From NCBI RefSeq assembly GCF_058153355.1, contig NZ_CM177019.1: 64,000 nt of DNA, one strand, 5' to 3'. The number at the start of each line of letters is the position of its first letter. Within the stretch, counting starts at the first letter, position 1. The notes beneath the pieces were generated by a model. That model saw nothing but the letters and a program-made list of their open reading frames with translations. It was not told the origin of the DNA and did no database searches. The translations under genes were made by a program, and so were the position numbers. Of the stretch, positions 10,067 through 49,440 are shown one piece after another.

Positions 10067-10644
10067 AGCATGTACTGCATACCTCCTGCCTTAGAATTAT
10101 CTCCGGCTAACTCCACCAAACATGGCTGTACACAGCCAGATAAGAACGCTTGCGCGCATCTGGATATCATACCGCTGCTGGAACTGTTTCTTAATCATCC
10201 TACCTTATTCGACCTATTCGTTACTGGCCATTATGAAGGACGCAAAGTAAGCGCTTTTTATGCGTTTTGGCCTAGTTATTATCACGTTACCTTAATATTA
10301 TCAGGAACGAGTTAACGCTGCTCATAACGGTCAAACCGATACTATAAAGCCCAATAATTGAAACCTTTTCATCATGTCAGGAAGATAGTCATCCTTATGA
10401 TCTTTATATAAAAAAGCCAACCATGGGGTTGGCAAAGTGGCACAAACCAGCATAAAAGCTATGCTTTGTTTACAAATCTTCTTTGAATTAAATATATATC
10501 GTCCTGACTAAACAGAACTAAAACGGAATGAATTATTTAATCATATTACTAAATTTCATTTTGTTTAGACTCTGTTGAGATCCCTTGTTTTAAATTTCAT
10601 TTAGATAAAATTCTTAATTAAATCCTTGGGAGTCAATTATCTCT

Positions 10645-10899
10645 ATGCAAAGTCAAGGAATGTACTTTGAAATGAACCTATACGCATATTTGAATAAATA
10701 TGATAGTCGGCTTTCAGAAGAAAAACTTGCAATTGATAAGGCAGTTAGAGATTTATATCTTTGCAACGAACACGTGGATAACAAGAGCATTATACTGAAA
10801 TTGCTCTCATTTTTATCATCTGCTGATGACATTGTTGAAAAAGATATTATCAGGAATGCTTTGGAAGTGGTGCTTCTTTTTACATTAGACGATATTTAA
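10645..10899 (+). CDS. AriR/YmgB-family paralog (connector-like small protein)
   Basis: 84-aa ORF; C-terminal half NKSIILKLLSFLSSADDIVEKDIIRNALEVVLLFTLDDI aligns with Ari[40 protein letters not shown]. Confidence 0.7.
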   Translation: MQSQGMYFEMNLYAYLNKYDSRLSEEKLAIDKAVRDLYLCNEHVDNKSIILKLLSFLSSADDIVEKDIIRNALEVVLLFTLDDI

Positions 10900-11147
10900 G
10901 TCATCTCAGGAGTTTTAATACACGAAGAGTGCCCGGATACTAGCGATTATATTCATATTTAATTATTAGTGCGGGGAAAGAGATTATGCATTGGCATATT
11001 TCTCTAACGTCCGCGATAGAAAAACAACTTTAAATATAAATAAAGAACAAACCACCTTTGCATTCAACCTCATCTGAGCTGACTATAGTACAAATTATAT
11101 TGATATTCTTTATCAACATCATTGGAACAGAAGAATAAGGCGAAGAA

Positions 11148-11471
11148 ATGAAGTGTATAGTAATTGATACTGTAATACAACCTTCGTGTGGTATATATTT
11201 TTCAGTCATATGGAGCGATATAAAAATGATCATTTGGTATCGTTCAAATATCTTTCTCCCACCTGGCAGCATATTTACAGTTATTAAGTCAGGTATTATA
11301 CTCGAGGATAAAGAATATCCGATCAGTATTTTTAACGTGGCGCTATTCAACAAAAATTTATGGAATTTAATCAAAAATAGTCAAGAGTGTCCTACAGAAT
11401 CAAACAAAATTACGAATAAATGCCTGCATAAGCATTGCATTATGCAAATATGTCCACATGGTCTCAAGTAA
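11148..11471 (+). CDS. iraM: Anti-adaptor protein IraM
   Basis: 107-aa [21 protein letters not shown]...[18 protein letters not shown]; recognised as IraM. Confidence 0.88.
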
Positions 11472-11518
11472 TGGGGGTTATTTAACCTTCCCTATATGCT
11501 ATAGATAAATCTACCAAA

Positions 11519-11560
11519 AACTGCCCCTTCGTAGAGGGGCTCTATGATTTTGTTTTATTT
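11519..11560 (+). terminator. Rho-independent terminator after iraM
   Basis: GC hairpin CTGCCCC-TTCGTAG-AGGGGC followed by a T-rich tract. Confidence 0.6.
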
Positions 11561-12205
11561 GAAGGCATGGTGCTGAATGTACTCGTTGAATCCAGATTCA
11601 ACACCTGAAGCTACACTTAACCCATAATACTTGTTTCTGGTTCCTCTACCGAGTGGTCAAACAATGATATGTATGTGACGTCAGAGTTTATTTTTTTAGT
11701 GTTTAATGCTATTAATTTAACGTAGTTACCTATCTTTTTTCTACCTTCTGAACTAACCTTAGGTTTCAACGTATCCGGCAGGAGGGGCTATCCCCAATCT
11801 TAAATTTTGCTGCCCGATTTGCTCAAGCCAAAGTTTTAATTTTACAACCTATAAACCTGAGTTAAATCAACCTCATGGTGCTGTCTGTTCCCGCTGTGGA
11901 ACAAGACTCACTGCAACATCTTGCATTCCTAAACTTCGCAGAAGGCGATGGGCAAAAACTGTACTGTAATGTTATTTCGATGTCTCTTATGGTAAATAGG
12001 AGGCGTCGAGGCTAAGTGAGTAGCCTGCTTGCTTCTCAAGCCTGGATACTATCAGCATTCACGTCAGATGAAATGATGATATTTCGCGTAAGAAAGAGGC
12101 ATTTTTTTATCAACTTCACATCGGAGATGGTAATAATCCTATGGGTCCAGTCCATATGAGGGGGTCAACATACTATAAAATTCACAATCATAAATTAACT
12201 ATATA

Positions 12206-13663
12206 TCAAGAACGCCAAAAAAATCCTGAAAATAGTATAATAACAGGGTAAATTTCAAGTCGACCAAGAATCATAGCAATACACATGAGATATTTTGCAA
12301 TATCATTAAGAACACCGAATGAGGATGCGGTAGCCCCAAAACCCAGCCCCATATTATTAATGCATGCAGCGACTGTCGCAAATGATGTAAGGAAATCATA
12401 TCCCATACCGTTTAGCACCAGTATAAAAAACACTGTAAAGAAAGTATAAAGAAAAAAGAAACTCCATACAGACCTCATTACGCGGTCTGTAACAATCTTC
12501 CCTCCTACATTTACACTAAGCAATGCTCTGGGATGAGAAAGCTGATTTATTTCGTGTTTACTTTGTTTAAAAAGTATAAGAAATCTAAGTGATTTAATTC
12601 CGCCGCACGTTGAGCCTATACATCCCCCAAAAAAACTTGACAGCAGCAAAAAAACTATCGTATGTGTGGGCCAGTTTGAATAATCCTGCGTAGCTAAACC
12701 ATTATCAGTGAGCATGGAGCTAGCAAGAAAAAACGAATGAACAACACTTCCAGTTAAGTCATACATACCTATATGCCAGACCTGGAAAGAGGTAACAATA
12801 ATAACACCTGAAGCTATTAACAAAAAGAAACGAAGTTCAACATCTGTGAGTAAGGGTTTTATTGTTTTCCTGCTTATAACAACATACCAAAGAGTGAAGT
12901 TGAAAGCCGATAACAGAGAAAAAGAGCCCGCCACCAGTTCAATCAAATAATTATTGAAATAGCCGATACTCTCACTATGAGTTGAAAAACCGCCAAGAGA
13001 AACTGTAGAAAGTCCATGACAAATAGCATCAAACAAAGGCATTCCTGCAAGTCGATAACAAACAATACAAGCAATGCCTAATAAAGAATAAGTTATCCAA
13101 AGTGTCCGCGACGTATCAGCCAAGCGTGGAGTCAGTTTGTCATCCTTAAATGGCCCTGGCATTTCTGACTGATAAAGTTTTGCACCACCAATACCCAATA
13201 ATGGCAACACAGCAACTGCCAGAACAATAACCCCTAAACCGCCGATAAAATTTAATTGTGACCGGTAGAACAAATATGCCCGAGATAATGAACTGACATC
13301 ATCAATTACTGTTGCTCCTGTTGTTGTTATTCCGGAAACCCCTTCAAACAGCGCGTCAGCAAACGTTAAATTAAGCTCTGAATCAATCCATAATGGAAAT
13401 GCGCTAATAATAGAAAATAAAATCCAAAACATTACAATTATAATAAACCCATCACGGGTGCGTAATTGAATGCCAGATTTTTTAGTGGTATACCACGCTC
13501 CGCCACCAATACAAAAAAATATAACAAAAGTAATAAAAAAAACGAACAAGCTTTTTTCTTTATAAAACAATGCTACAACCATTGGTGGTAACATTGAAAG
13601 ACTATAGAGCCAGACCAAGAACCCACACATATGAGTTACAACTCTTACATGAGATGTATTCAT
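12206..13663 (-). CDS. trkG: TrkH/TrkG-family K+ uptake membrane protein (TrkG-like)
   Basis: Multi-pass membrane protein with TrkH-family motifs (SGITTTGATV, repeated G-rich pore loops); 485 aa from MNTSHV (ORF could start 18 nt upstream at 13681); very AT-rich. Confidence 0.7.
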   Translation of the reverse strand: MNTSHVRVVTHMCGFLVWLYSLSMLPPMVVALFYKEKSLFVFFITFVIFFCIGGGAWYTTKKSGIQLRTRDGFIIIVMFWILFSIISAFPLWIDSELNLTFADALFEGVSGITTTGATVIDDVSSLSRAYLFYRSQLNFIGGLGVIVLAVAVLPLLGIGGAKLYQSEMPGPFKDDKLTPRLADTSRTLWITYSLLGIACIVCYRLAGMPLFDAICHGLSTVSLGGFSTHSESIGYFNNYLIELVAGSFSLLSAFNFTLWYVVISRKTIKPLLTDVELRFFLLIASGVIIVTSFQVWHIGMYDLTGSVVHSFFLASSMLTDNGLATQDYSNWPTHTIVFLLLSSFFGGCIGSTCGGIKSLRFLILFKQSKHEINQLSHPRALLSVNVGGKIVTDRVMRSVWSFFFLYTFFTVFFILVLNGMGYDFLTSFATVAACINNMGLGFGATASSFGVLNDIAKYLMCIAMILGRLEIYPVIILFSGFFWRS

Positions 13664-14099
13664 ATCCAAATGTTCTTTCAATTATAACCACCTTACTGCA
13701 ATGTCATGATTATACTGTATAAATTTTAACTCTTCTTAGATCTTACTTCACTGGTCCTTATGAAACAATCAGCAAAATGAATCTTATTATAACACTGTTC
13801 GGTTATGTATTGTTGAGCCTTCCCGCTGGGCCTGCATCATTACAAGTCGCTCCCTATGGGGCTTTGTCGAATAAATAATTTTTCGGTAAGTATCCCCTGA
13901 GCAGGTTGTATCTTCAGGCAGTATGAACACTTTCTGGCATACCTACCTTCGTCATTATGTTCAGCGTATGCACCATGACCAAAGCCTCTGCAACCGGCCG
14001 ATCATAATCTAGCAACATCAGAGAACCTCAGAATAACTGTTTTACCCTGTACATTGCCGTTTCCGCTATTGAGCAACGATTGTAATCTTTTGTCCATTT

Positions 14100-14530
14100 T
14101 CACCGGGAATTACCCTCGGTCAATCGCTGATACGCGACTGCACAGTTACGGTCGGCATACTCACCGGACCAGTAACCCGCTCCTTTTTGGGGTGGGATGA
14201 GCGCGCTGATTTTCACACGGCGCAGCTGCTCGTAACAGAGCCGAGAGGCGTAAACTCCGTCTGCTGCTGTCCTGATTTTTTGATGGGTTTGCCGGATTAA
14301 TCCGGCTACACCTCTACATCCGTTACGCTGAATGCTGAGGTCGCCCTTGGGAAGAAGGCATTGCTGACTTATACCAATCCGAAATCACCTCCTCGTGCAA
14401 CCAGACAGGGAGGGGCCTCGGTTGATAAGAGCTCTGTTATTGATGTGCCAGTTGGTGATTCTAACTTTTGCTTTGTAACGGGACGAGCCGTGTTGGCAGA
14501 TGATGTGTGGTCTGATCCTTAAACTCAGTA
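14100..14530 (-). pseudogene. IS5-family (IS903-group) transposase remnant
   Basis: Minus-strand frame without start codon encodes ...VAGLIRQTHQKIRTAADGVYASRLCYEQLRRVKISALIPPQKGAGYWSGEYADRNCAV..., matching the C-terminal region of the IS903 transposase as I recall it; truncated by stops; no intact ORF. Confidence 0.6.
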
Positions 14531-14544
14531 AAAGTACGATTTAT

Positions 14545-14585
14545 TCAAAAAAGCCCCTCCACTATGATTTCGATTTAAGGGGCTG
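14545..14585 (-). terminator. Rho-independent terminator downstream of the 458-aa gene
   Basis: On the minus strand, AGCCCCTT...AAGGGGCT hairpin followed by TTTTTGAATAAA. Confidence 0.5.
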
Positions 14586-14615
14586 ATGATTATGTAACGC
14601 GAATTTACCGGATCC

Positions 14616-16001
<1,386 letters not shown>

Positions 16002-29125: not shown

Positions 29126-29916
29126 TCGGTCGACTGCTTCGCGGCGGTTTTATGACCGCTATCTACGCGTACCTGTATATCCCAATCATTATTTTGATTG
29201 TGAACTCCTTTAACAGCTCGCGCTTTGGCATCAACTGGCAGGGTTTTACCACCAAATGGTATAGCCTGCTGATGAACAACGACAGCCTGTTACAGGCAGC
29301 TCAGCATTCTCTGACGATGGCGGTGTTTTCGGCGACGTTTGCTACGCTTATCGGTTCACTGACGGCAGTTGCGCTGTACCGTTATCGCTTTCGTGGTAAG
29401 CCGTTCGTTAGCGGAATGCTGTTTGTGGTGATGATGTCACCAGATATCGTAATGGCGATTTCGCTGCTGGTGCTGTTTATGCTGCTGGGTATTCAGCTTG
29501 GCTTCTGGTCGCTGCTGTTCTCGCATATCACCTTCTGCCTGCCGTTTGTGGTGGTGACGGTGTATTCGCGCCTGAAAGGTTTTGATGTGCGAATGCTGGA
29601 AGCGGCGAAAGATCTCGGTGCCAGCGAATTTACCATTCTGCGAAAAATCATTCTGCCACTGGCAATGCCTGCGGTGGCGGCGGGCTGGGTGTTAAGCTTT
29701 ACCCTGTCGATGGACGATGTAGTAGTTTCTTCGTTCGTCACCGGACCAAGCTATGAAATTCTGCCGTTAAAAATTTATTCGATGGTCAAAGTCGGCGTAT
29801 CGCCGGAAGTTAACGCGCTGGCAACCATATTACTGGTGCTGTCGCTGGTGATGGTAATTGCCAGCCAGCTTATTGCTCGTGATAAAACGAAAGGTAACAC
29901 AGGGGACGTTAAATGA
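29122..29916 (+). CDS. potC: Spermidine/putrescine ABC transporter permease PotC
   Basis: 264-aa permease; start overlaps potB stop. Confidence 0.94.
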   Translation: MIGRLLRGGFMTAIYAYLYIPIIILIVNSFNSSRFGINWQGFTTKWYSLLMNNDSLLQAAQHSLTMAVFSATFATLIGSLTAVALYRYRFRGKPFVSGMLFVVMMSPDIVMAISLLVLFMLLGIQLGFWSLLFSHITFCLPFVVVTVYSRLKGFDVRMLEAAKDLGASEFTILRKIILPLAMPAVAAGWVLSFTLSMDDVVVSSFVTGPSYEILPLKIYSMVKVGVSPEVNALATILLVLSLVMVIASQLIARDKTKGNTGDVK

Positions 29917-30959
29917 AAAAATGGTCACGCCACCTGCTCGCGGCGGGTGCTCTGGCACTGGGCATGAGCGCCGCTCACGCCGATGACAACAACACGCTGT
30001 ATTTCTACAACTGGACCGAGTACGTGCCGCCAGGACTGCTTGAACAGTTCACCAAAGAAACCGGTATTAAGGTTATCTATTCGACTTACGAGTCGAACGA
30101 AACCATGTACGCGAAGCTGAAAACGTACAAAGACGGTGCCTATGACCTGGTGGTTCCTTCAACCTATTACGTCGATAAAATGCGTAAAGAAGGGATGATC
30201 CAGAAGATCGATAAGTCGAAGTTAAGCAACTTCAGCAATCTCGATCCAGACATGCTCAACAAGCCGTTTGACCCGAATAACGACTACTCCATTCCGTATA
30301 TCTGGGGGGCGACGGCGATTGGCGTTAACGGTGATGCGGTTGACCCGAAATCTGTCACCAGCTGGGGCGATCTGTGGAAGCCTGAGTACAAAGGCAGCCT
30401 GCTGCTGACCGACGATGCCCGTGAAGTGTTCCAGATGGCGCTGCGCAAACTGGGCTACTCCGGTAACACCACCGATCCGAAAGAGATTGAAGCTGCATAC
30501 AACGAGCTGAAAAAACTGATGCCAAACGTCGCGGCGTTTAACTCCGATAACCCGGCGAACCCGTATATGGAAGGCGAAGTTAACCTCGGCATGATCTGGA
30601 ACGGTTCTGCTTTCGTTGCACGCCAGGCGGGTACGCCAATTGATGTGGTGTGGCCGAAAGAAGGCGGCATTTTCTGGATGGACAGCCTGGCGATCCCGGC
30701 AAATGCTAAAAACAAAGAGGGCGCGCTGAAATTGATCAACTTCCTGCTGCGCCCGGATGTGGCAAAACAGGTTGCTGAAACTATCGGTTATCCAACGCCA
30801 AACCTCGCCGCGCGTAAGCTGTTAAGCCCGGAAATAGCGAACGACAAGACGCTCTACCCGGATGCTGAAACCATTAAAAATGGCGAATGGCAGAATGACG
30901 TTGGCGCAGCCAGCAGCATTTATGAAGAGTATTATCAGAAGCTGAAAGCAGGACGTTAA
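29913..30959 (+). CDS. potD: Spermidine/putrescine-binding periplasmic protein PotD
   Basis: 348-aa ORF with signal peptide; start overlaps potC stop. Confidence 0.96.
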   Translation: MKKWSRHLLAAGALALGMSAAHADDNNTLYFYNWTEYVPPGLLEQFTKETGIKVIYSTYESNETMYAKLKTYKDGAYDLVVPSTYYVDKMRKEGMIQKIDKSKLSNFSNLDPDMLNKPFDPNNDYSIPYIWGATAIGVNGDAVDPKSVTSWGDLWKPEYKGSLLLTDDAREVFQMALRKLGYSGNTTDPKEIEAAYNELKKLMPNVAAFNSDNPANPYMEGEVNLGMIWNGSAFVARQAGTPIDVVWPKEGGIFWMDSLAIPANAKNKEGALKLINFLLRPDVAKQVAETIGYPTPNLAARKLLSPEIANDKTLYPDAETIKNGEWQNDVGAASSIYEEYYQKLKAGR

Positions 30960-30966
30960 TTCAGCA

Positions 30967-30996
30967 AGCGGGCGGTGGTATTACCGCCCGTTTTTT
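30967..30996 (+). terminator. Rho-independent terminator of the pot operon
   Basis: GCGGGCGGTGGTATTACCGCCCG hairpin followed by TTTTTTC. Confidence 0.8.
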
Positions 30997-31063
30997 CATT
31001 TAGCAAGGATGTGGCTAATGTTGCTGTTATGGACGAGTAAACACTAAAAGAGGCAGTAAATAT

Positions 31064-31097
31064 GCCAGATGCGGCGTCAACGCCTTCTCTGGTCTAC
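31064..31097. repeat. REP-like palindromic unit just 5' of the intron
   Basis: GCCAGATGCGGCGTCAACGCCTTCTCTGGTCTAC resembles the REP consensus GCCGGATGCGGCGTGAACGCCTTATCCGGCCTAC. Confidence 0.55.
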
Positions 31098-31697
31098 GAG
31101 TGCGACAAGAAGTCGTCCAACATATTGTTTTGATAAATTATTTATATAAAACCAACTATTCCATTAGTTGTAGCCTACTGAGGCAGGCAAAGCTGGTAAC
31201 GGCTCTGTCTGAAGCCCTTGGGACAATGTAGCTTAGCAAATATTGCTTCAGTTAATCGTGAGAAAACCTGATCGCTACAAGCATCATGCGGCGAGAGCGC
31301 TAGGCTGGGCGGTATGGTTAACATAGTGAACTGTCGTTAAACGTCGTAACAGAGAACGAGCCAAAGATGCTGATAGGCTTGCACCAAAAGGTAAGGGGTA
31401 AGGCTATTCCTGTTCGTAGTGGGAATACATGGACAATAACTCCCCCGGCGGATAGACAGAACCTAACCCGTTCTTTGTATGTTGGTCGGAACTTGGTAAG
31501 CCCGAATTCTCGCCCTAGTGGCAGGGGCACCGTAAGGCAAACTGATGAGAATGCGGGTAAAGGAGGATGGAAAAAGCGAAAGCCGGACTGTAATCGTGCG
31601 GATAGAGGTTCAATATTTGCCTTAACGGGAAACCGTGCTGACTTCCATCTGGTCTTTAATTGCGAAACATCTGCGAAGGTTTCTTTGGATGACATGT

Positions 31698-33377
31698 ATG
31701 AAAATTACATCTAACAATGTAACTGCGGTCATCAACGGAAAAGGTTGGCATTCCATTAACTGGAAGAAATGCCATCAACACGTTAAAACCATACAGACAA
31801 GAATCGCAAAGGCGGCATGTAACCAGCAATGGCGTACAGTCGGTAGATTGCAACGATTGCTGGTTCGCTCATTCAGCGCCAGAGCACTGGCGGTGAAACG
31901 AGTTACGGAAAATAGCGGGCGTAAAACCCCCGGAGTTGATGGTCAAATCTGGAGTACTCCAGAATCAAAATGGGAAGCGATATTCAAACTCAGGCGAAAA
32001 GGGTACAAGCCCCTACCGCTAAAAAGAGTTTTTATACCCAAATCTAATGGCAAGAAAAGACCATTAGGAATCCCCGTCATGCTTGACAGGGCAATGCAGG
32101 CCCTGCATCTGCTGGGATTGGAGCCTGTATCGGAAACTAATGCAGATCACAACAGTTATGGTTTCAGACCAGCGCGATGTACGGCTGACGCCATTCAACA
32201 GGTATGTAATATGTATAGTTCCCGGAACGCCTCGAAATGGGTTCTGGAAGGCGATATTAAAGGATGCTTTGAACACATTAGCCACGAGTGGCTGCTTGAA
32301 AATATTCCTATGGACAAGCAAATACTCCGTAATTGGTTGAAAGCCGGGATCATCGAAAAAAGCATATTCAGCAAAACTCTCTCGGGTACACCCCAGGGAG
32401 GAATCATATCTCCAGTTCTGGCAAACATGGCCCTGGATGGACTGGAAAGACTGCTGCAAAATCGCTTTGGTCCGAAACGCTCAAAAACATTCAGGAAACA
32501 TCAGGTTCACTTCGTCCGGTATGCTGATGATTTCATCATTTCCGGAAAGTCGAAAGAACTTCTGGAGGAGAATGTTCTTCCGTTGGTGAAATCATTTCTT
32601 GCAGAAAGAGGGCTGACGTTATCCGAAGAGAAAACGGTCATCACTCACATTACTGACGGATTTGATTTCCTTGGGCAGCACGTCCGACGCTTCGGTAGAA
32701 AACTCATAATCAGACCAGCCAAGAAAAACGTTAAACAATTTCTTAGCAAGATCAGAGAGACTATTGAAGGTAACCGAACGGTTCCTGCATGGGTGCTAAT
32801 AAATCTGCTTAATCCAATCATCACCGGGTGGGCAAACTATCACCAACATGTAGCATCGGCAGAGACATTTAACTATGTCGACAACCAAATCTGGCGCAAA
32901 ATCTGGCAGTGGTGCAGAAGGAGACATCCCGGCAAAGGCCGGAGATGGATCTTCCGAAAGTACCACACGACAATAAAAATGTGTCATGGTCGATTTTATG
33001 GAGTCGATCCGGAGGGTAGGAAATATGTTCTGTCCCGGGCCAGCGACATCCATATTAATCGCTATATAAAAATAAAGGGAACGGCAAATCCATATGATCC
33101 CGAGTGGGAAACATACTTCGAAAGAAGGCTGGACTACTCATGGAAGAAATCCCAACAGGGGCAGAAAAGGATTCTCGCTATATGGAAAAGGCAAGGATCG
33201 CGCTGCCCTTTATGTGAGCAACCGATTAATCGCGATACAGGATGGAATGTTCATCATTTGCTCAAGAAATCTCTTGGCGGTAGCGATGATGTGAGCAATT
33301 TAGTCCTACTCCATCCCAACTGCCATCGACAACTACATAGTAATGACGCTGGTCTCCCACAAGGTGGAGGCTTATAA
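31698..33377 (+). CDS. Group II intron-encoded protein (reverse transcriptase / maturase / HNH endonuclease)
   Basis: RT motifs including YADD (HFVRYADDFIISG), maturase/X region, C-terminal HNH (CPLCEQPI...HHLLKKSLGGSDDVSNLVLLHPNCHRQLH); start could be 31635 or 31689. Confidence 0.88.
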   Translation: MKITSNNVTAVINGKGWHSINWKKCHQHVKTIQTRIAKAACNQQWRTVGRLQRLLVRSFSARALAVKRVTENSGRKTPGVDGQIWSTPESKWEAIFKLRRKGYKPLPLKRVFIPKSNGKKRPLGIPVMLDRAMQALHLLGLEPVSETNADHNSYGFRPARCTADAIQQVCNMYSSRNASKWVLEGDIKGCFEHISHEWLLENIPMDKQILRNWLKAGIIEKSIFSKTLSGTPQGGIISPVLANMALDGLERLLQNRFGPKRSKTFRKHQVHFVRYADDFIISGKSKELLEENVLPLVKSFLAERGLTLSEEKTVITHITDGFDFLGQHVRRFGRKLIIRPAKKNVKQFLSKIRETIEGNRTVPAWVLINLLNPIITGWANYHQHVASAETFNYVDNQIWRKIWQWCRRRHPGKGRRWIFRKYHTTIKMCHGRFYGVDPEGRKYVLSRASDIHINRYIKIKGTANPYDPEWETYFERRLDYSWKKSQQGQKRILAIWKRQGSRCPLCEQPINRDTGWNVHHLLKKSLGGSDDVSNLVLLHPNCHRQLHSNDAGLPQGGGL

Positions 33378-33383
33378 AGGCTT

Positions 33384-33417
33384 GAGCGGTATGCGGGGAA
33401 ACTCGCACGTACCGTTC
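33384..33417 (+). ncRNA. Group II intron domain V (catalytic hairpin)
   Basis: GAGCGGTATGCGGGGAAACTCGCACGTACCGTTC matches the domain V consensus (GAGC...GNRA loop...GTTC, AGC triad context). Confidence 0.7.
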
Positions 33418-33477
33418 TTAGGGGGCGGCGAGACAGTAATGAATCGCTGCTACCCGACCACCCGCAAATTCAATTCA

Positions 33478-33512
33478 TTGCGCCCCATCGCAGGCCTGAT
33501 AAGCGTAGCGCA
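33478..33512. repeat. REP element between the intron and cobB
   Basis: GCAGGCCTGATAAGCGTAGCGCATCAGGCAATG, a classic REP palindrome. Confidence 0.7.
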
Positions 33513-33531
33513 TCAGGCAATGCTTCCTGCT

Positions 33532-34353
33532 TTATAAGCCCTTCAGCAACTTTTCAACAAACTCTGGCACCACCTGGCTTGCCGGGCCGTAATATTTCTC
33601 GGCAAATTCATTACCGACCTGACTCGGTTCAAGATTGAGTTCCACAGTGTGCGCACCATGCAGTTTCGCTTCGTGAACAAATCCAGCCGCCGGATAAACA
33701 TGCCCGGAAGTACCAATGGCAATGAAAATATCGGCCATCGACAACGCCATATAAATTTCATCCATGCCGAGTGGCATTTCGCCAAACCAAACGACGTGCG
33801 GGCGCAAGGGTGCCGGGAACTGGCAACAATGGCATTTATCTTCTGGCGTAACGTCTCCGGTCCAGTCGAGAATCTGACCACTTTGCGAACAACGTACTTT
33901 CAGCAATTCCCCATGCATATGAATCACATTGGTATTACCTGCGCGTTCGTGCAGATTGTCGATATTCTGCGTCACCAGCAAAAAGCGATCGCCGAGAGCA
34001 TCTTGCAGTTTAGCTAGCGCAAGATGCGCGGCGTTAGGCTGAATTTCTGGCTGCTGTAGCTGTCGACGACGGGCGTTATAAAACGCTTGCACCAGTTCAG
34101 GATCGCGATCGAAACCTTCCGGCGTTGCCACATCTTCAACCCGATGTTCTTCCCACAGGCCATCTGCGGCGCGAAAGGTACGAATACCTGATTCCGCGGA
34201 AATCCCTGCCCCTGTCAGTACGAGTACTCTTGGTTTTTCCATTGCTTCCGGCACCACTTTATCTCTGAAAAAAATACGCTGACGCAAACGCTCGCGCAGG
34301 CGGCGTTTATTTTTACGAAAACGACTTAACCGATGACCCCGACGCGACAGCAT
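33532..34353 (-). CDS. cobB: NAD-dependent protein deacylase CobB (sirtuin)
   Basis: 273-aa ORF; Sir2 motifs ([25 protein letters not shown], Zn-binding CxxC...CxxC). Confidence 0.94.

Positions 34354-48128: not shown

Positions 48129-49440
<1,312 letters not shown>

Follow-up and report, generated by a model that had tools for sequence, protein, structure and literature searches.

The lack of ymfA and ycfZ between potD and cobB in the DNA analysed here, and the presence of a group II intron in the same interval, very probably go back to two separate events: a deletion of the gene pair came first, and a clean insertion of a hok-site intron at a REP came later. The pair appears to be missing through an older deletion that other E. 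coli strains also have. The deletion has left a scar, and the same scar occurs in 14 complete E. coli genomes with the intron's target intact and unoccupied; the intron has exact borders, a recognizable home in hok genes on plasmids, and a landing site in the chromosome that closely resembles this home.

Gene content of the potD-cobB interval

The window (the whole 64,000-nucleotide stretch under analysis) carries potA, potB, potC and potD on the + strand of this neighbourhood and cobB, nagK and lolE on the - strand. The left border of the interval is potD (29913-30959, +), the last gene of potABCD, and the right border is cobB (33532-34353, -), which encodes a Sir2-family deacetylase and is convergent with potD; both are identified by their open reading frames and by annotation in matching genomes. 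The intergenic interval is thus exactly 30960-33531, with both flanking genes where a sequence-only reading of this DNA had placed them. That reading gave a K-12 gene order in which ymfA and ycfZ lie between cobB and potD, and this order is right: annotated complete E. coli genomes (for example SCU-102 and a K-12-type strain) have both genes there, and ymfA adjoins potD also in the K-12 derivatives MC1061 and ET12567. YmfA is a DUF3592 protein of 153 amino acids and YcfZ a TPM-domain protein of 261-262 amino acids (Pfam).

Neither protein has a coding sequence in the 64-kb window, where the best TBLASTN match has E=2.7; the pair is therefore absent from the interval and from the rest of the window. 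When the 1438-bp interval of the long allele is compared with the window by BLASTN, only its two ends match. Every base of the window interval can be assigned: to a terminator, a 30-nt remnant, a REP, a 2359-bp intron, a spacer and a second REP. The description of the interval as devoid of ymfA and ycfZ and occupied by an intron and REPs is confirmed. The intrinsic terminator of potD (30966-30993, +) consists of a 12-bp stem followed by a T run and is kept in short and long alleles. At the other end of the interval, the 35 nt of 3' exon and spacer that follow the intron (33459-33493, +) lead into the second REP unit, GCCTGATAAGCGTAGCGCATCAGGC (33494-33518, +), which is found in all alleles and beyond which lies the cobB stop codon.

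A deletion scar shared with other strains

What remains of the gene pair is a scar of 30 nt (31018-31047, +) in which the ymfA ATG runs in frame straight into the last 8 codons and the stop codon of ycfZ; in the alignment of short and long alleles it reads ATG TTG CTG TTA TGG ACG AGT AAA CAC TAA. The ymfA start codon is kept in its native context, GGATGTGGCTAATG, and directly after it comes TTGCTGTTATGGACGAGTAAACACTAA, which is the last eight codons of ycfZ with their stop; in long alleles the 3' end of ycfZ reads ...GCGTT(G/A)(T/C)TATGGACGAGTAAACGGTAA. The normal ycfZ-cobB spacer with its REPs follows on the 3' side of the scar. Survival of the ycfZ 3' end together with the ymfA ATG establishes that a deletion of ~1.2 kb (designated type A), and not ancestral absence, accounts for the short interval. 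The type A junction in the window is GGCTAATG joined to TTGCTGTTATGGACGAGTAAAC, followed by the REP with the tail CTCTGGTCTACGA.

The empty site was reconstructed by joining window positions 30960-31099 to 33459-33537. Of 5426 complete E. coli genomes, 14 have it at full length, at 96.3-99.5% identity; Z0117EC0005 and N96 are among these intron-less type A genomes, and in all 14 the intron target is intact and unoccupied. The identical junction in 14 finished genomes led us to reject an assembly artefact. Of the "strain-specific deletion" offered by the sequence-only reading, the deletion is upheld by the surviving 3' end of ycfZ; its restriction to one strain is contradicted by the 14 other genomes with the same junction.

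The type A allele, possibly with its intron, may have entered this strain from another lineage by homologous recombination instead of being inherited vertically, a proposal that we take seriously while leaning against it. In potCD and cobB-nagK, type A strains such as Z0117EC0005 share 98.7-99.0% identity with the window, and across the neighbouring 24 kb N96 is 98.7% identical while every other complete genome is at most 97.4% identical. The high local identity of type A strains hints at possible transfer of the allele between lineages by recombination. Such transfer would, however, concern how the allele spread and not what the allele is, and it is compatible with a deletion followed by a separate intron insertion.

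An intact group II intron at a REP tail

The intron is complete, with a length of 2359 bp (31100-33458, +) and with borders defined by alignment to the empty site. It starts with GTGCG (31100-31104) and ends with ...CCCGAC at 33458, which fits the GUGYG / AY rule. Relative to the type A empty site the window has exactly 2359 additional bp, and no flanking base has been lost or duplicated; the junctions read ...GGTCTACGA/GTGCG...CCCGAC/CACCCGC (slashes at the intron borders). Two Rfam models recognize its RNA: RF02012 (group-II-D1D4-7) at 31152-31299, with 112.5 bits (gathering score 34), and RF00029 (Intron_gpII, domains V-VI) at 33382-33458, with 65.5 bits (gathering score 40). The intron-encoded protein (IEP; 559 amino acids, 31698-33377, +) is uninterrupted and contains RVT_N, RVT_1, GIIM (maturase) and HNH endonuclease domains, all of which exceed the Pfam cut-offs. 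It is full length, as is the IEP of a plasmid copy from E. albertii; the copy on pRHB33 has a premature stop codon. By its ends, domains, IEP and target pairing, the element can be classed as a mobile-type, ORF-containing group II intron. Its position, 3' of the potD terminator in the gap between two convergent genes, means that it interrupts no coding sequence.

By GC skew, which gives a weak signal here, the strand that bears the intron would serve as template for leading-strand synthesis. This orientation would fit, faintly, endonuclease-dependent rather than Okazaki-primed integration; we do not rely on it.

The insertion point is set by a REP unit of the Y type (31064-31097, +), which fits the REP pattern, recurs at 49397-49430, and contributes its 3' tail to the intron target. 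The 5' exon target (31085-31099, +) comprises IBS2, TTCTCTG (31085-31091), and IBS1, CTACGA (31094-31099). Their putative partners in the intron are a candidate EBS2, CAGAGAA (31350-31356, +), which is the reverse complement of exon positions -15 to -9, and a candidate EBS1, TCGTAG (31414-31419, +), the reverse complement of exon positions -6 to -1. The window target CTCTGGTCTACGA and the E. coli hok site CTCTGGCCTACGA are identical at 12 of 13 bases, and this resemblance of the REP tail to the hok homing site explains why the intron landed at this REP. The first base of the 3' exon is C in the window versus A at the three plasmid hok sites whose 3' exons were read; on account of this C, the window site is an ectopic site and not a perfect homing site.

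The REP of long alleles has the tail TATC(T/C)GGCCCACAAA, which contains no match to IBS1, and would not be expected to pair with the intron's EBS1. Among the alleles compared, the type A REP is the only one that matches both IBS1 and IBS2. The intron can therefore be found on the type A allele without any causal link to the deletion. REP-containing sequence is repeated in these genomes: a query made of the short allele, which carries both REPs of the interval, has matches at a median of 9 places per E. coli genome, and interval queries overall give medians of 9-16.

These observations bear directly on the main idea of the sequence-only reading, namely that insertion of the intron itself removed ymfA-ycfZ in a single replacement event. 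The idea draws on the proximity of intron and deletion within the same 2.6-kb interval and on the fact that the intron is seen only on the deletion allele. It is nonetheless most improbable: the scar lies 52 bp upstream of the intron, with unique sequence and a REP between them; the identical scar and an intact target exist in 14 genomes without the intron; the intron has precise borders, and no flanking base is missing; and the match of the type A REP alone to IBS1 and IBS2 is enough to account for the co-occurrence. A deletion coincident with acquisition of the intron, as had been proposed, is contradicted by the 14 intron-less type A genomes and by the clean 2359-bp insertion.

Home site of the intron

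Megablast of the intron against 5426 complete E. coli genomes yields 2 matches, both plasmid-borne and 97% identical, and no chromosomal copy; at the potD-cobB site, no complete genome covers 80% or more of the query. Compared with these genomes, the window holds the sole chromosomal copy of this hok-homing intron. A plasmid collection contains 20 full-length copies (77-99.6% identity) with hosts in Escherichia, E. albertii, Salmonella, Citrobacter and Enterobacter, and most of the plasmid matches listed lie across a gene annotated as Hok-family. Junctions were read for 3 plasmid and 5 metagenome copies: in each the intron follows ...GG(C/T)(C/T)TACGA, and 7 of these 8 copies sit at the 3' end of a hok coding sequence. 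(The 3' exon, which starts with A, was read at hok sites for three plasmid copies only.) The five metagenome loci, found by a scan with the 5' end of the intron, divide into 4 in hok and 1 at another ectopic site; none of the five is at potD-cobB. Judged from these flanks, the intron is normally at home on IncF-type plasmids, at the 3' end of the hok toxin gene.

The copy on plasmid pRHB33-C08_2 is 99.6% identical to the window intron (10 nt differ), and copies that encode exactly the same IEP, from two sequencing runs, differ by 1-2 nt and occupy hok-type sites; a look-up of the exact IEP returned 3 short contigs, with hok-type flanks in the two shown. The small number of nucleotide differences from other copies and the full-length IEP are evidence that the hop was recent.

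In the literature searched, neither a hok-homing group II intron nor a group II intron in a REP is described; the introns of IncF plasmids that do appear there (E.c.I11 and an intron downstream of ycjA) are unrelated. The E. coli introns E.c.I1-I9 home to IS elements or Rhs, and none of them is in hok (Leclercq & Cordaux 2012, PMC3522654).

Distribution of ymfA-ycfZ

The full-length ymfA-ycfZ pair is present in 4826 of the 5426 complete E. coli genomes (89%); comparison with this panel shows that ymfA and ycfZ do lie between potD and cobB in most genomes. A second deletion, type B, occurs in 560 of the 5426. It keeps the first 42 nt of ymfA, which pass at an ATTG microhomology into the spacer immediately ahead of the second REP, and it also takes out the first REP; its junction recurs in Escherichia sp. 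E1V33, the representative of a separate species. Types A and B together make up 574 of the ~600 complete E. coli genomes that lack the full-length pair. The type B deletion is independent of type A, and the pair has been lost at least twice.

Beyond E. coli, the locus was surveyed in one genome per species with PotD as query, and YmfA, YcfZ, CobB and NagK were placed by TBLASTN on 80 loci. In E. whittamii and in the E. coli species representative, potD and cobB enclose the pair; in E. albertii it is directly 3' of potD, on a contig that ends inside ycfZ, before cobB. Outside Escherichia it is almost always absent from the loci scanned. TBLASTN finds no remnant of the pair in the 40-110 bp that separate potD from cobB in Citrobacter, Salmonella enterica subsp. 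arizonae, and most Enterobacter, Kluyvera, Trabulsiella and others. Phytobacter massiliensis has a distant version of the pair at the same position (58% and 51% identity), and in some Klebsiella, Raoultella, Kosakonia and Enterobacter the place is taken by 0.5-4.9 kb of other DNA. By this distribution, ymfA-ycfZ is a gain at about the level of the genus Escherichia, and the state of the window is a secondary loss.

The window itself comes from a divergent lineage of E. coli, one that finished genomes sample poorly: over the 24 kb next to the locus no complete E. coli genome is more than 98.7% identical, and most are ~97% identical. That divergence, together with the direct apposition of potD and cobB (gap of 40-110 bp) in most Enterobacteriaceae outside Escherichia, speaks for the view that the pair was never in this lineage, the short interval being ancestral and the genes an addition in K-12 and its relatives; the view is scarcely tenable in view of the ymfA ATG in native context, the last 8 ycfZ codons with their stop, and the ycfZ-cobB spacer that the window retains, and of the pair's presence at this site in E. 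albertii, E. whittamii, the E. coli species representative and 89% of complete E. coli genomes. The suggestion of a K-12-lineage addition must therefore be given up, given the 4826 E. coli genomes and two other species with the pair and the ycfZ tail in the window; addition survives at another level, as a gain at that of the genus, since potD abuts cobB outside Escherichia.

The genes are unusually variable where they occur. Alleles of ymfA-ycfZ differ by up to 25% in protein sequence (YmfA identity among strains goes down to 74.5%) while the flanking genes differ by 1-3%. A PADLOC scan of YmfA and YcfZ for a link to defence systems gave no match. In the literature searched, ycfZ and ymfA figure in incidental gene lists only, and the polymorphism of the pair is not described.

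History and significance

The following sequence of events would account for the locus. An ancestor lost ~1.2 kb of ymfA-ycfZ, from just past the ymfA ATG to 8 codons before the ycfZ stop codon, and the resulting type A allele circulates at low frequency in E. coli without an intron. Much later, the hok-site intron of IncF-type plasmids would have moved into the chromosome by reverse splicing immediately 3' of the REP downstream of the scar, where the tail of the type A REP, TTCTCTGGTCTACGA, is predicted to pair with EBS2 (CAGAGAA) and EBS1 (TCGTAG) no less well than the hok site. Since the deletion allele exists without the intron, deletion first and intron later is the simplest order; it is an order that we infer by parsimony from other genomes. 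Movement from plasmid to chromosome, rather than the reverse, and endonuclease-dependent target-primed reverse transcription as its mechanism are likewise inferred, as the probable course of the second step.

What looks like a replacement is, on the two-event reading, gene loss by deletion and ectopic insertion of an intron, well-known processes that are unrelated to each other, and no new mechanism is needed. Presence or absence of ymfA-ycfZ is an ordinary gene-content polymorphism; the intron is one unusual ectopic hop. The hop does illustrate that a chance REP variant can provide a plasmid intron with a harmless chromosomal landing pad, and the unusual strain-to-strain divergence of ymfA-ycfZ may hold a hint to the function of the pair.

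A bolder proposal has two independent parts, and we put it forward as speculation that is rather unlikely to be borne out: that the REP tail is a working secondary homing site, and, separately, that ymfA-ycfZ is a hypervariable surface or envelope pair under diversifying selection. If the REP tail does work in this way, REPs would offer hundreds of near-cognate ...GGCCTACG sites per genome, through which a plasmid-borne hok intron could colonise chromosomes. If the pair is under diversifying selection, it might be, for example, the target of a phage or a toxin, and repeatedly lost.

Comparison with known systems

The older of the two events resembles other short-homology deletions in E. coli, in that a clean stretch of ~1.2 kb with two non-essential genes has been lost, and lost recurrently and independently. 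It differs from the usual loss of accessory genes by this route in that the two genes concerned are themselves hypervariable from strain to strain.

The known bacterial group II introns retrohome and also retrotranspose to ectopic sites that look like their homing sites. With mobile introns such as EcI5 and Ll.LtrB, the window intron shares the 5' GUGCG and 3' AC ends, domains V-VI, an IEP that combines reverse transcriptase, maturase and HNH endonuclease, EBS1/IBS1 and EBS2/IBS2 pairing, and the absence of target duplication. It is not among the common introns of E. coli, as megablast finds it in 2 of the 5426 complete genomes, both times on a plasmid. Its home site is hok, and this copy is chromosomal and follows a REP. 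Class C group II introns, which insert after terminator stem-loops, share with it an intergenic site just 3' of a palindromic stem-loop. They are as a rule shorter, and their IEPs are not known to have an endonuclease domain. An assignment to class C was rejected: the window intron has 2359 bp and an HNH domain, and IBS2/IBS1 pairing and the match to hok account for its target.

The insertion sequences IS1397 and ISKpn1 recognize REPs as their regular target, and they have in common with the window intron an insertion in a REP cluster between convergent genes. In the 5426 complete E. coli genomes, this intron is seen at no other REP. Unlike IS1397 and ISKpn1, the window intron met a REP only through the chance mimicry of hok by one REP variant.

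Variation and loss of ymfA-ycfZ

The ymfA-ycfZ pair is hypervariable among E. coli strains (L002, a locus from another strain, 3018-4261; also loci L088, L089 and L090). Compared at the DNA level with one allele, the pair is 80-90% identical in 1476 genomes and 90-95% identical in 2788, whereas in every genome the flanking genes show 95-99% identity. YmfA protein identity between allele classes is only 74.5%, and the alleles are mosaic: YmfA and YcfZ of K-12 belong to different classes.

The type-B deletion, which arose independently of the window's own type-A allele, has a junction that passes from nt 42 of ymfA through ATTG into the spacer (L011, 3304-3466; O157:H7 TR01, L003, 2941-3097). 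That this junction is common to 560 E. coli genomes and to the representative of a separate species, Escherichia sp. E1V33, indicates that the type-B absence allele either is old or has passed between species.

The potD/cobB junction is also a variable spot across the family (loci L013-L087). The gap between these two genes is 40-110 bp in most genera of Enterobacteriaceae; Klebsiella, Raoultella, Kosakonia, Lelliottia and some Enterobacter hold 0.5-4.9 kb of unrelated DNA there.

Chromosomal setting of the window

Over 24 kb (36000-60000), the finished E. coli genome closest to the window is that of strain N96, from a Tibetan pig, at 98.7% identity; every other finished E. coli genome is at or below 97.4%. 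The window lies unusually far from the finished genomes of E. coli, which points to a source in some divergent or cryptic lineage of the species. The left part of the window (1-16000), which adjoins icd, is low in GC (41-42%, compared with ~51% elsewhere) and carries BLUF-EAL, MerR/MlrA-like and CSS-EAL genes (bluF/bluR/pdeG-like). It also has a gene of the TrkH family at 12206-13681, and at 14616-15992 an ORF of 458 aa that matches nothing in Pfam. At icd, the window shows no prophage of the e14 type. In strains Z0117EC0005 (L001, 1-956) and O157:H7 TR01 (L003, 1-936), a phage integrase gene lies directly upstream of potC, in the place of potB, pointing to a prophage inside the pot operon; the window, unlike these two strains, has potABCD intact.

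Group II introns in hok genes and elsewhere

A family of group II introns, whose members are 77-99.6% identical, breaks hok toxin genes at their 3' ends (L005, 2501-4859; L006, L007 and L091-L094) on IncF-type plasmids of Escherichia, Salmonella, Citrobacter and Enterobacter. These introns lie in sense orientation relative to hok, and the annotated Hok ORF of an interrupted gene runs on into the intron. Our search of the literature found no description of this hok-interrupting family. One metagenomic copy of the window's intron is located at a non-hok site ending in ...CTACGTTGATGGCTTACGA (L095, around 1998), where an IBS1-like GGCTTACGA is kept; this copy is a second instance of ectopic insertion, away from the hok home site.
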